64,000 bases of DNA. It comes from Eledone cirrhosa (taxonomy: Eukaryota). The stretch lies in contig OZ024741.1 of the NCBI GenBank assembly GCA_964016885.1, forward strand, positions 107,136,001 to 107,200,000, in the 5' to 3' direction. Within the stretch, counting starts at the first letter, position 1, and each line of letters begins with the position of its first letter. The notes beneath the pieces were generated by a model that worked only from the letters and a program-made list of their open reading frames with translations, was not told the origin of the DNA and did no database searches. This document shows, in pieces, positions 1,484 through 57,342 of this stretch. A program made the translations under genes and the position numbers.

Positions 1484-1560
1484 AGTAACAAGTTTTAAAA
1501 TATCCAAATACCTAAACTCGGCTCGGGTATTGAGTACTTATTCTCACTTACGCCAAACTC
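1484..1560 (+). mobile_element. Penelope-like 3' terminal fragment (family G), copy 1
   Basis: Near-identical inverted copy at 2383-2460; contains ttgagtact; embedded in (TA)n/(CA)n. Confidence 0.5.
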
Positions 1561-2094
1561 ACACACACACACTCATATATATACATATATATATATATAT
1601 ATATATATATATATATATATATATAGTTAGAGAAATCCTTCTATTAATGCTTACCTGTGTTTTCTCTTTTATATATATATATATATATATATATATATAT
1701 ATATATATACATACACATGTATATTAATATATTCATATTAAACATATATATAATATATATGTATATATATGTGTATATATATATATATATATATATATAT
1801 ATACATACATGTATATAAATATATTCATGTTATGTATATATACAAACATATATATATATATATATATATATATATATATATATATATATATATATATATA
1901 TATATATTTATATATACATGTACATATATGCACACACACACATTTATATATATATATATATATATATATACATATGTACATTTGCCGCATGTTGATATTT
2001 TGGTATTAGATATATTATTATATACATGTCAATAAATGTAATCGGAATATTTTGACACCTTGTTCCTACTCCTTATTTCCATTTTTATTATCAT

Positions 2095-2283
2095 TGTGGA
2101 TTGGCAGTATCGGTAGAGGGTTGGACGCCATGCTTTGCAGCATAGAGTTACGGCCCTTTAAGGTCTGAGTTCAAATCCCGCCAAGGTTAACTTTGCCTTT
2201 CATCCTTACGGGGTAGATAAAATAAAGTACCAGTAATGCACTGGTGGATTGCTGGCCTTGTGCCAAAGGTAGAAACAATTATA
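2095..2283 (+). mobile_element. tRNA-derived SINE (family 1, Meta-domain-like core)
   Basis: A box tggcagtatcgg, B box gttcaaatcc, core gcctttcatccttacgggg..gataaaataaagtaccag, tail tagaaacaattat; more than 10 copies in the window. Confidence 0.9.
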
Positions 2284-2382
2284 ATACATACATATATACA
2301 TATATATATATATATATATATATATATATATATATATATATATATATATATATATATATGTATATATATGTGTGTGTGTGTG

Positions 2383-2465
2383 TGAGTTTGGCGGAAGTTA
2401 GAATAAGTACTCAATACCCGACCCGAGTTTAGGTATTTGGATATTTTAAAACTTGTTACTCCGCA
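2383..2465 (-). mobile_element. Penelope-like 3' terminal fragment (family G), copy 2
   Basis: Reverse complement of 1484-1560. Confidence 0.5.
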
Positions 2466-3499
2466 GTTACACCTTTTTCCTCAGGACACCAGACACCACA
2501 TACACATATAAAAGAATATATGTATACATAAATAAGTAAATACACCCAAACACACACACAAATATATATATATATATATATATATATATATATATATATA
2601 TATATATATATATATATATATATATATATATATATATATATATATATATATATATATATATATATATATATATATATATATATATATATTTGTGTATATG
2701 TATATGTGTGTGTATATACATATATATATATATATATATATATATATATGTGTATTTATATATATATATATATATATTTTGATACTTCGATTACATTGCG
2801 GCCAAGCTTCAAGCAAACTTTAACACCCTCAGATATATATATATATATATATATATATATACATACATATATATATATATATATATATATATATATATAT
2901 ATATATATATATATATATATGTGTGTGTGTATATATATATATATATCACAAACAATCTTAAACACACAGCGGAAAACACACACACCTCAATATATATATA
3001 TATATATATATATATGTATATATATATATACACACATATATATATATATATATATATATACATATATATATATATATATATATATATACACACATATATA
3101 TATATATATATATATATACATATATATATATATATATATATATACATATATATATGTGTGTATATATATATATATATATATATATATATATATATATATA
3201 TATATATATATATATATATATATATATATATGAAGGTGTGTTTTTTCCGCTGTGTGTTTAAGATTATTCGTGATTGAGTTTGTTCCCAAACAAGAGGAAA
3301 AGTGTAAAACCGGGATTTAGGAAATAAGTCCAGGGTGGAGCTTGATGCAGTGTCCCAGCTTGGCCACAATGTAATCGAAGTATCAAAATATTCAAGAACA
3401 TGCTTATTTCTATATATATATATATAAACTACACAAGGCCGTTATATATATATATATATAGAGAGAGAGCGAGATATATATGTATATATATAGATATGT

Positions 3500-3663
3500 G
3501 TATCCCGTTTTCAATCTGGGTTAACCACACTAAGTAAGGTGCTCAATACATAGCAGAGTATGAATATTTAATATATGGCTTCTACAGGACTAGAACTGTT
3601 TCATTCGAAAGAAATCATTTCTTCGAATGAAGAGTTCTAGTCCCGTAGAAGCCATTTCTATAT
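3500..3663. mobile_element. Asymmetric fold-back element, family B
   Basis: Arms atggcttctacaggactagaact..ttcattcgaa / ttcgaatgaa..gttctagtcccgtagaagccat; tail on the left; (TA)n flanks. Confidence 0.75.
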
Positions 3664-3719
3664 TAAATATGTATATACATATATATATATATGTATATAT
3701 ATATATATACATATATATA

Positions 3720-54704: not shown

Positions 54705-55025
54705 TAGTGATTAGGGTTTTGGGTTCACAATCTTGTGGTTGCGGTGAGTTAGATTTCCAGAACAGGTGGGGCATTGTATCTGAGCAAGACACTTTATTTT
54801 ACATTGTTCCAGTTTACTAAACTGTAGAAATGGGATGTGATGTCACTGGTGCCAAGCTGTATCAACCGCTACCTTTCCCTTGGAAAACATCATTGGCTTG
54901 CAGAGGTTTGGATTGTATGCATGGGTGACCACTGGTTTTCCACAGAAACACCTCGTCCGGTTTTGTGCCTCGGAGAGTAGCGTTCTGGGTCCAAAACCCA
55001 TGGTCATTCATGACCGACGGAGCTC
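54705..55025 (+). mobile_element. SINE family 2 variant
   Basis: Paralogue of 36901-37205. Confidence 0.72.
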
Positions 55026-55239
55026 CATCTATCTATCTATCTATCTATCTATCTATCTATCTATATGTATATATATATATATATATATATATATATATAT
55101 ATATATATATATATATATATATATATTAATAAAAGGAATTCCAACTTTGTCTATTTACTCGTTTTATTTACAATCCTTTAAAATTATAATGATATTATAA
55201 TGAAATAGTATGGTAGAATATTAAATGTTAAGTGTTAAT

Positions 55240-55278
55240 TGAACAAGTACTTTCATGCTTTCGCAATCTTCAGGTTCA
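55240..55278 (-). ncRNA. Minimal type I hammerhead ribozyme
   Basis: tgaac CTGAAGA t tgc gaaa gca t GAAA gtac TT^ gttca; GNRA loop II; palindromic stem III AGTACT. Confidence 0.88.
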
Positions 55279-56289
55279 TATTCAGTGGTGACAGTCAAGT
55301 TTGCAATTTTCAACTGTAATGAGATGGGTAAATTCTGTGCCTTATATACAGTAAAAAGGGGCTACAGAATGCTAAGTTTTGCAAACTGTATTTCGACTTT
55401 TTATTAATATAATCTTCTATACACAATCATTCACACTCGTGTATATATATATATATATATATATATATATATACATACATATATATATATATATATATAT
55501 ATATATATATATATATATATATATATATATATATATATATATATATATAAAAGATTAAGTAAAATAGATGTTAGTTTTTAAATCGTAGTTTACAACAATA
55601 ACGCAATTCACAAGAATGCTACAAATATAGCATTCATTATATTATTTACAGTATTATAATAATTATTTTATTCAATATGTTTTGTCATGTATGTCTTGTC
55701 CTATTCCATGGAGTCCAGTTACAACAGAATCATTTGTTACTTCAATTATATTTTCTTCAGAATTTCTATTCTCTGTTGGATTTTAGTTTTATGTAATCTA
55801 ACAATACTCACGTTTTACAATATATTGTTCTAGAAATTCTCTATGAAGTGATATTGATGAAGTATATACATATCATGGTGGATTTTAACATTGAAGAATC
55901 TCTAATAATCTTTGAAATATAGAAATTCCCAGCTTGTGCGTTATGTAATTGGATTTCTATGACACTTATAAACTGAATAGATTATGTGTGAAGGGATGGA
56001 TCTTCTTAGAAGATCGCTTTACTTCTGTCTTCTTGGCATTATACCGCTTCTGCAACTGTAGAAACTCTAGTTTGTATTTCATATCTCGTATTCAATTTCA
56101 TAATAGAATTAGAAAGCATCATATTTACATATATATAGCGGCCACCCGATCTTCGCCCCGGTCTGTACTGTGCTCAAATCTATTCATACGGCACCTATTG
56201 TGTTGGGGAACACGTAATTAATTAATATTACAACAGTTTCCACAACAGCACGAAATGAAGGATCAAAACATCTTCATTATCAAGGAATT

Positions 56290-57045
56290 TCTTTTTCTAT
56301 AAATTTAAATGCTGAGGAGTGTTTATCCGTAACTCTGAGTCTCCCCTCCCTTTCCACCTCTGTTATTCGTACTGAAGAAATCTCCGAGGCAGGGAAAATC
56401 AGAAGGTTGCCTCCATACCGTTTTCGGAAAAGAAGGCGATTGCAAGCATCTCGTAGGTCAGGTTAGTAGAAAATGCGCGAAAAAACCTAGGAAAAAAATT
56501 TTTTCACGATTCCCAGCGGATGCTTTTCTATAAATTTAAAAGGTGAACAAGTGTTTATCTGTAACTCCGATGATCCCCCACACTCCATGCCTCTGTTTTC
56601 GGGAAAAGGAGTCGCTGGAAAGTGAATCGGATGTCAGATCGTTTGAAAATAAAATAAATCCCCACAGAAAAAATGTCCAAGCACGGCAATATCCGAAGGT
56701 TACCACATTCTGTTTTCGGAGAGAAAATCGATTGTGAACATGTCGGAGGTCATAATAGCTGAGAACACACGAACAACCTTAATTATTAACAATTTTATTT
56801 AGTATTATTAGTGATCAACGTACAAATAAACTTGCTCTTCCTAAATGTATAGCTGCTGGACGAACGGACAATATCTGTGTACTAAAAAAAGCAGTAAATT
56901 TACACCGATCTCGCTCCCCTCATTTCGATTTCAGAAAATAAGCCATCAGCGAACTTGGGGCAGAATTGAGGAAAACACGAAAAACCTTAATTATTATCAA
57001 TTTTATTTATGATATTGGCGGTCAACGTAGAAATGAACTTCATTT
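56290..57045. repeat. Old diverged tandem duplications (about 210-235 bp units)
   Basis: ttttctataaatttaaa at about 56293 and 56524; aaccttaattatta.caattttattta at about 56775 and 56983. Confidence 0.7.
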
Positions 57046-57143
57046 TTATAAGGATCTCTCTCTCTCTCTCTCTCTCTCTCTCTCTCTCTCTCTCTCTTTA
57101 TATATATATATATATATATATATATATATATATATATATATAT

Positions 57144-57342
57144 AGGAACGAGTAGGACCCCGACAGCTGAGCTCAAGCCGTTTCGACGGATAATTCTGGA
57201 CTCGGTCCAGAATTAACCGTCGAAGCGGCTTGAGCTCAGCCGTCGGGGTACTACTCGTTCCTATTACCCACTCTACTACCCTAAGTATTGAGTACTTTGG
57301 TGCGTTATGGTCCATCTGGTTCCTTACCACATTTCCTTCGTT
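57144..57342. mobile_element. Family A fold-back (tail on the right)
   Basis: Same layout as 14524-14720; loop ctcgg. Confidence 0.85.

Follow-up and report, generated by a model that had tools for sequence, protein, structure and literature searches.

Stem-loops at the 3' ends of long and short interspersed nuclear elements (LINEs and SINEs) recruit the reverse transcriptase (RT), and in L1 twin priming a second internal primer leaves an inverted piece. Penelope-like elements (PLEs) carry RTs that form the sister group of telomerase. Here we analyzed a stretch of 64,000 bases from Eledone cirrhosa (contig OZ024741.1, positions 107,136,001 to 107,200,000; hereafter the window), in which a short hairpin is conserved in the tails of what appear to be PLE remnants. 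The element type is known, and the hairpin is apparently undescribed. The stem-loops of LINEs and SINEs lie inside the copied region, whereas the hairpin of the window would lie 3' of an internal start and is left out of the short, tail-less ends.

Hydra-clade PLEs (Craig et al. 2021, PMC8557442) share with the window families canonical hammerhead ribozymes, (TA)n targeting, head-to-head arms, and a tail at one end. Their tails measure 30-40 nt, compared to 50-100 nt here, and the accessible parts of that paper describe no tail hairpin; they leave the formation of PLE tails and inverted ends open and name it as the next task. PAc, a Poseidon element of Anolis (Frangieh et al. 2024, PMC11167929), is similar in that the tail, downstream of a hammerhead, is bounded by two internal sites at which RT starts, that RNA 3' of these sites is required, and that the target is AT-rich. 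However, PAc belongs to another clade, and an AC-rich stem-loop inside the open reading frame (ORF) contains its starts; the available sections of this in vitro study define no signal for the internal starts and give no cross-family motif. The bacterial GIY-YIG protein SsnA (SsnA/NTS, PMC11893778, in part) also reads a hairpin by sequence and structure, with the event a few bases 5' of the stem, but it has no RT and is inactive on RNA, and serves as an analogy for an endonuclease explanation only. Non-LTR retrozymes (LTR, long terminal repeat; bioRxiv 10.64898/2026.07.22.740005, portions accessible) are non-coding units with type I hammerheads derived from the pseudo-LTRs (pLTRs) of PLEs; they form head-to-tail tandem arrays, whereas the window insertions are single or head-to-head. 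Window self-BLAST revealed no head-to-tail tandem hammerhead arrays, and an identity with retrozymes was rejected. We found no account of the tail hairpin in searchable texts, a search with Repbase entries and subscription papers outside its range, and an earlier mention is possible.

The initial annotation had proposed that YGAGTRCT, shared by the 3' tails of otherwise dissimilar families, is a conserved cis signal. All of its strings were present where it placed them (its 9-mers begin 1 base 5' of the Y), and the idea of a cis signal was supported. It had overlooked that the motif is half of a hairpin, that the carriers resemble hammerhead-type pLTRs of the Hydra clade, and that a fixed distance separates the hairpin from the short ends. 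YGAGTRCT is the 3' half of a bulged hairpin, in which GAGY pairs with an upstream RCTC. The order is RCTC, a variable stem of 2-5 bp, a loop of 3-42 nt, a bulge of 1-2 nt, GAGY, and an unpaired RCY. RCTC begins 14-19 nt 5' of the motif in six of the eight strong lineages of the initial annotation (background rate 3.1%), and 46 and 56 nt upstream in the other two, with 3-4 inner pairs. The bipartite pattern had 24 matches in the window versus 1.7 in shuffles and added a lineage at 5522; none of the 24 fell in a copy of the SINEs, which we take to resemble octopus SINEs.

We further examined the inner stem. Over 14 lineages, 37 of 42 inner-stem cells were Watson-Crick pairs versus 16.5 when permuted (0 of 20000); the eight short-loop lineages alone gave 19 of 24 (P 0.001), and the four lineages from outside the window gave 12 of 12 (P 1/24, the lowest possible). 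Inner pairs at the lineage level summed to 28 versus 11.1 +/- 3.4 (10 lineages). Among 19 aligned copies, which are related to each other, 82.9% of the cells were paired versus 75.0 +/- 1.8 in shuffles, with two of five measures not exceeding the shuffles. Over 19 copies, the sense strand had 12 G-U versus 2 A-C combinations, and the terminal pair was A-U in eight lineages and G-C in three. A MAFFT alignment that misplaced the 5' strand was excluded from the counts. The hairpin is conserved, with compensatory changes, on the hammerhead-sense strand. Its copies in the window are listed below.

14649..14675, plus: hairpin of family A, with a 4-bp inner stem and 2-nt bulge, on the long arm of head-to-head insertion 14525-14720, whose short arm stops 5 nt 5' of it
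57270..57296, plus: hairpin of family A, insertion 57145-57341
57918..57944, minus: hairpin of family A, insertion 57873-58057
49227..49253, minus: hairpin of family A, insertion 49182-49382
5117..5143, plus: hairpin of diverged family A copy 5050-5190
5683..5709, plus: hairpin of a tail-only family A copy
3762..3788, minus: hairpin of family A copy 3722-3865, with changed 5' stem letters
19332..19353, minus: hairpin of family B, ending in RCC, insertion 19291-19490
30616..30638, plus: hairpin of family B
35919..35940, minus: hairpin of family B, insertion 35884-36024
28451..28472, minus: hairpin of family B, with a decayed inner stem
3538..3559, minus: hairpin of family B, insertion 3498-3658, with a mismatched terminal pair
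20894..20916, plus: hairpin of family C, insertion about 20578-20968
32177..32199, plus: hairpin of family C, insertion 31838-32259
41199..41221, plus: hairpin of family C, right arm of 40752-41261
40809..40831, minus: hairpin of family C (other subfamily), left arm of 40752-41261
15084..15106, minus: hairpin of family C copy 15024-15282
6265..6286, plus: hairpin of family C copy 6150-6347
11099..11121, plus: hairpin of family J, insertion 10907-11160, with a 1-nt bulge; the short arm stops 4 nt 5'
39609..39631, plus: hairpin of lineage J2, with a 1-nt bulge, preceded by a minus-strand hammerhead-like core stretch at 39537-39602
1516..1538, plus: motif pair of family G, lower stem intact, inner stem poor
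2406..2428, minus: motif pair of the second family G copy
5522..5545, plus: hairpin of an additional lineage that the 8-mer does not match, with a purine before GAGT
39363..39386, plus: hairpin of an extra lineage, absent from the initial annotation
28700..28752, plus: long-loop hairpin, RCTC 46 nt before GAGT, behind the hammerhead at 28642
37982..38044, plus: long-loop hairpin, RCTC 56 nt before GAGT, behind the hammerhead at 37884

Some family assignments had to be revised: the motif at 38036, placed in C before, has no BLAST match to C and forms its own family, and 39623, placed in J, has flanks without significant similarity to J. The motif at 5701 belongs to family A, and the lineage at 28744 has a B-like head. 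A window-wide search with a model of the window copies gave no new family; its best new match, at 39807 (E 0.16), is a B copy in decay. A chimeric origin of 28632-28794 was discarded after the long-loop hairpin fitted. The consensus of a tRNA B-box or of a selenocysteine insertion sequence (SECIS) did not fit by eye, and a second helix between RCY and downstream bases, fitting some lineages only, is not claimed. A minimal-loop bipartite match at 40348-40375 (minus), upstream of a hammerhead family otherwise without the hairpin, is possibly due to chance.

We infer that the carriers, most of which have a minimal hammerhead, derive as 5'-truncated remnants from the pLTRs of (TA)n-targeting PLEs, and that these PLEs most likely belong to the Hydra clade. 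Of the AT-rich animal DNA of the window, 21,666 bases (one third) were masked as microsatellite. Microsatellites are the insertion sites of the carriers; most end in (TA)n, a preference that is a Hydra-clade trait, and family G, some B copies, and 39379 adjoin (CA)n first. Eleven insertions across families A, B, C, and J consist of head-to-head inverted, 5'-truncated arms, a layout known for the pLTRs of PLEs (PMC8557442 and PMC3846280, accessible parts). Ten of the 11 have a tail-less arm and one is tailed on both arms; as noted before, the motif is missing from the short arms in A, B, C, and J. Scanning of the window for hammerhead cores gave 25 sites. Type I minimal cores lie on the motif strand in B, C, J, 28642, and 37884. 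In B, C, 28642, and 37884, stems I and III close and the triplet is cleavable; J, 41094, and 40938 failed to close under the script rule. The hammerheads are as follows.

20787..20836, plus: type I minimal hammerhead in family C, from the core up to the predicted cut, with an 8-bp stem I and palindromic loop III
6160, 32071, 15210 (minus), 31922 (minus), 41094, and 40938 (minus): family C-like hammerheads
19384..19422, minus: hammerhead in family B, from the core up to the predicted GUA cut, with a mirror copy at 19438-19476 (plus)
11024..11063, plus: hammerhead core of family J, closure by eye only
28642..28680, plus: hammerhead in the B-like head of the 28700 lineage
37884..37933, plus: hammerhead of the 37982 lineage

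The Naiad clade, without a canonical hammerhead and with an N-terminal endonuclease, is contradicted by the canonical cores that B, C, J, and two singletons carry; only family A, with half a core, fails to decide. In Rfam 15, no match reached the gathering score. Among the best 150 of 726 matches there was no hammerhead, the best being sub-threshold microRNA hits driven by microsatellites; two short tail regions gave no hammerhead and no match with E < 2.9.

The position of the hairpin relative to the tail-less ends was then compared among copies. These ends stop 2-8 nt 5' of RCTC in 14 of 15 cases, 10 of the 15 being read by exact match and four (A57270, B3559, L010, and L011) across a substitution or small indel. 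The gaps were 5, 5, 5, and 5 nt in A; 8, about 4, and 15 in B; 2 and 4 in C; and 4 in J. Outside the window, they were 6 and 6 in the L007/L011 family and 5, about 4, and about 5 in Hydra-2-like copies. The predicted hammerhead cut lies 19-61 nt from the hairpin, and the hairpin lies 20-83 nt from the microsatellite. The fixed spacing is to the end of the short arm and not to the microsatellite.

Hairpins outside the window were also examined. Of six Hydra-clade consensi (File S7 of Craig et al. 2021, PMC8557442) scanned by eye, four carry the hairpin. In Hydra-2_Amil and Hydra-2_Ajap, its position is downstream of the hammerhead, its terminal pair is G-C, and its inner stem has 4-5 bp; Hydra-1_Ajap has two at its extreme 5' end, ahead of the ORF, with a tail-less 3' end; and the hairpin of Hydra-1_Crog has one mismatch. 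That of Hydra-1_Amil is weak, and Hydra-1_Obim, which no window family matches by eye, showed none by eye. Two exact motif 7-mers gave 22 matches in the accessible part of the supplement (PMC8557442), none in the Hydra file; the Hydra hairpins use other letters. Three 7-mers gave 39 non-Hydra matches, of which three had RCTC at roughly the right spacing by eye (about one expected by chance), with at most two or three weak inner pairs. Line breaks in the supplement file may hide 7-mer matches. The supplement of the O. vulgaris repeat paper held no motif match.

A genome contig collection was scanned with a hammerhead-only pattern without hairpin letters, resulting in 18 loci. Thirteen look like chance microbial matches without a hairpin, L018 stops at a contig edge, and L002, L007, L010, and L011, three of which stem from one assembly, are AT-rich animal-like DNA with PLE fragments. 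The matched family is Hydra-2_Amil-like by eye, and it is therefore not independent of the consensus behind the scan pattern. This PLE-rich, animal-like DNA sits in assemblies listed as bacterial genomes. A covariance model from window copies alone, run on the 94,961 bases of the fetched loci, gave 11 hits, with L011:1688-1727, L007:3652-3697, and L002:65-104 at the top (E 0.007, 0.12, and 0.42). The hairpin at L007:1299-1336 ranks sixth, and only the top hit has E below 0.01.

L007:2-1066 encodes a GIY-YIG protein (E 0.001) with a CxCX5C linker, no CCHH, and C-terminal CxxC and CxH, and the order there is ORF, hammerhead, hairpin, tail, and (TA)n. Hydra hallmarks are partly visible in fragments L007:3193-3567, L011:1841-2464, and L002. 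Three other PLEs (L011:3-1639, L011:3861-5505, and L007:1935-2797), of another endonuclease type, have a hammerhead and reach (TA)n without a hairpin. Hydra-clade specificity of the hairpin is only suggested, because these three could represent tail-less ends and it is unclear which element owns the hairpin at L011:1696. At L007:2809-2956, between two (TA)n tracts, an inverted piece (parent 1300 to 1250) is joined to a forward piece (1310 to 1360). The inverted piece stops, at its outer end, 6 nt short of the hairpin; 4 nt separate its inner end from the predicted hammerhead cut, and the forward piece begins within the first strand of the hairpin. This is the layout that would be expected of two primers on one ribozyme-cut RNA. 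The stretch 39537-39668 in the window may share it; no parent copy confirms this.

We consider it slightly more probable than not that the element RT docks on the hairpin as RNA and starts internally just 5' of it, with a second primer further 3' giving the tailed end. The RNA downstream of the hammerhead would present an AU-rich stretch followed by the bulged hairpin (RCUC ... GAGY, unpaired RCY), which an element protein would bind and stabilize, positioning the RT. A nicked (TA)n end would prime on the AU-rich bases just 5' of the hairpin to give a tail-less short end, and the second primer, starting further 3', would copy through the hairpin to give a long end with a tail, by which the signal is passed on. 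The two cDNAs, primed on opposite target strands, would be joined into head-to-head arms. This reading parallels PAc, in which two internal RT starts bound the tail and RNA beyond them is needed (PMC11167929). A putative role in RT binding or start-site positioning, the function put forward in the initial annotation, fits the evidence. That the hairpin is a clade-wide RNA element across distant invertebrate hosts, docking a telomerase-related RT and setting the internal start a few bases 5', is a more tentative proposal, which we consider less likely than not. If true, each of the two target strands would prime once on a ribozyme-cut RNA about 115 nt long; the tail and the head-to-head arms of PLEs would be explained in one step, and a portable minimal template would be defined. 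A hairpin of 20-25 nt with an invariant core, a covarying stem, and a fixed offset from tail-less ends allows testing by exact mutations. A template-positioning RNA docking site would bear on the comparison of PLE RTs with telomerase, and the hairpin provides a marker by which short non-coding repeats of microsatellite-rich genomes can be classified.

Several observations weigh against RT docking on a conserved RNA hairpin in Hydra-like elements. No PLE protein was found among the 90 open frames of the window (Pfam), so the clade of the window families is itself inferred; the carriers are short remnants, and a missing RT or GIY-YIG ORF is therefore expected. Family A holds only the 3' half of a hammerhead core. 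The B short end at 35940 lies 15 nt off, two tail-less B arms at 5897-6001 end early too, and the short ends sit in AT-rich bases, where (TA)n microhomology could set them without a ruler. The twin layout is clear in a single case, that of L007, which could be a palindrome with a lost centre. Single-sequence folding gave the lower stem P>=0.96 in three of 10 window lineages and P<=0.13 in seven, and RNAalifold found nothing beyond the 4-bp lower stem (-1.79 kcal/mol), without any two-sided change. Family G is nearly without an inner stem, and the 1-nt bulge of J/J2 and the far anchors at 28700 and 37982 were picked after looking. At 43854, the weak case, RCTC is missing upstream; this family lies outside the feature and was rejected.

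The main rival, to which we give a limited chance, is that the hairpin acts as DNA. The GIY-YIG endonuclease would recognize single-stranded sense DNA of a fold-back second strand, cut a few bases 5', and trim the short arm before it is joined to the target, which fits the same 2-8 nt offset. In the accessible texts, SsnA recognizes both the sequence and the structure of the single-stranded DNA hairpin that it binds, accepts changes in the loop, and cuts a few nucleotides upstream (PMC11893778); the D. virilis tail, as cited in PMC11167929, was reported to be required for recognition by the endonuclease; Craig et al. attribute the tail to endonuclease resolution (PMC8557442); and fold-back self-priming has been proposed for PLE palindromes (PMC3846280). 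However, SsnA is a distant analogue, the available PAc data link tail ends to RT start sites (PMC11167929), and for fold-back to yield the inverted, non-overlapping pieces of L007:2809-2956, a later deletion would have had to end by chance at the hairpin.

Another RNA role appears doubtful: the hairpin could serve ribonucleoprotein assembly, dimerization through the near-palindromic AGTRCT, folding of the hammerhead, or expression control at the 5' end, with the AU-rich priming stretch alone placing the short ends. The two hairpins before the ORF at the 5' end of the Hydra-1_Ajap consensus, seen by eye, are consistent with this, as are partial accounts that the PAc hammerhead cleaves only with protein present (PMC11167929) and that minimal hammerheads with palindromic loop III need partners (PMC4209133). 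On the other hand, the distance to the hammerhead cut varies threefold while that to the short end is fixed, and GAGCACT variants destroy the self-complementarity.

A double-stranded DNA site, in which a protein dimer reads RCTC...GAGY as a spaced inverted repeat without any single-strand fold, is very improbable. Three of four lower pairs are invariant across the 14 lineages, the fold is weak in most lineages, and PAc is a predicted dimer (PMC11167929, in part), all of which would suit such a site. Yet the spacing spans 15 to 56 nt, the inner stem covaries with free sequence, and the G-U excess is strand-specific. The loop length varies from 3 to about 42 nt, which disfavors a rigid duplex site.

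The motif itself was compared with its background. YGAGTRCT has 22 exact matches on both strands versus 3.2 +/- 1.7 (maximum 9) in 300 segment-wise dinucleotide shuffles. Since motif copies are not independent, the count was repeated with repeat copies masked, leaving 10 hits versus 2.5 expected (Poisson P 2.7e-4), of which 16473 and 52319 have no element context and are background. The reported proximity to microsatellites was borne out: one begins 20-75 nt downstream of 18 of the 22 motifs, versus 18% of unmasked background positions, and lies 20-75 nt upstream of only seven. For the motif at 38037 the distance is 72-83 nt, and the copy at 41214 is truncated. In an unbiased ranking of degenerate 6-mers in junction zones, GAGTRC was 9th (P 0.003, uncorrected); because this rank would fail correction, the strong signal is that of the paired structure, with the 8-mer by itself giving a modest one. 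Deviations within families A, B, and C affect 6 of 209 core positions versus 249 of 1314 in flanks plus loop, a 6.5-fold contrast that is inflated, as most copies were found via the motif. Recent homology of the tails does not account for the motif, because the flanks of most lineages do not align (P<0.03 in only three of 55 lineage pairs). The absence of any function, with the motif due to shared ancestry or chance, would agree with the unremarkable corrected rank of the 8-mer and the two background hits among the 10, but is hardly credible given the conserved core, the unalignable flanks, and the recurrence of the structure in held-out loci, by which chance and ancestry are largely refuted.

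Further features of the carriers were observed. In the short arm at 20578-20702 (minus), exactly the hammerhead core is missing, to about 1 nt beyond the predicted cut, with the stem I strands adjacent; this gap looks like a polymerase skipping the folded ribozyme. The arms of 40752-41261 are about 99% identical over 165 nt and diverge about 16 nt before the hairpin. The right tail is of the 20909 subfamily and the left of a different subfamily, and the insertion is a chimera joined near the short-end boundary. In families A and B, the inversion centre lies in or beside the region of hammerhead stem II (14525-14720, 3498-3658, and 35884-36024). The family G copies 1485-1574 (plus) and 2385-2484 (minus) are oriented tail to tail; by eye, the longer has a decayed hammerhead-like stretch, and the shorter begins <=3 nt from its likely cut.

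Hammerhead-bearing repeats without the motif were found at 40142/37465, 12253/11852, 48821, and 44232; these hairpin-less repeats span 40016-40255, 37345-37590, and 12473-12570; 11695-12430; 48821; and 43821-44264. They can serve as controls. Two sharp-ended, microsatellite-flanked families have neither hammerhead nor hairpin, one at 22318-22384, 22887-22953, 26246-26297, and 48952-49018, and the other at 11180-11478, 26643-26907, and 19574-19634. Long inverted repeats without the motif (62435-62899, 33584-33997, 26017-26191, and 19749-20054) are probably similar to miniature inverted-repeat transposable elements. The window also contains a C2H2 zinc finger frame at 27693-27863 (minus; Pfam E 7e-6), perhaps a host exon, a LINE 3' fragment with zf-RVT at 58369-58962 (minus), and a mariner-type transposase fragment at 60923-61714 (plus).

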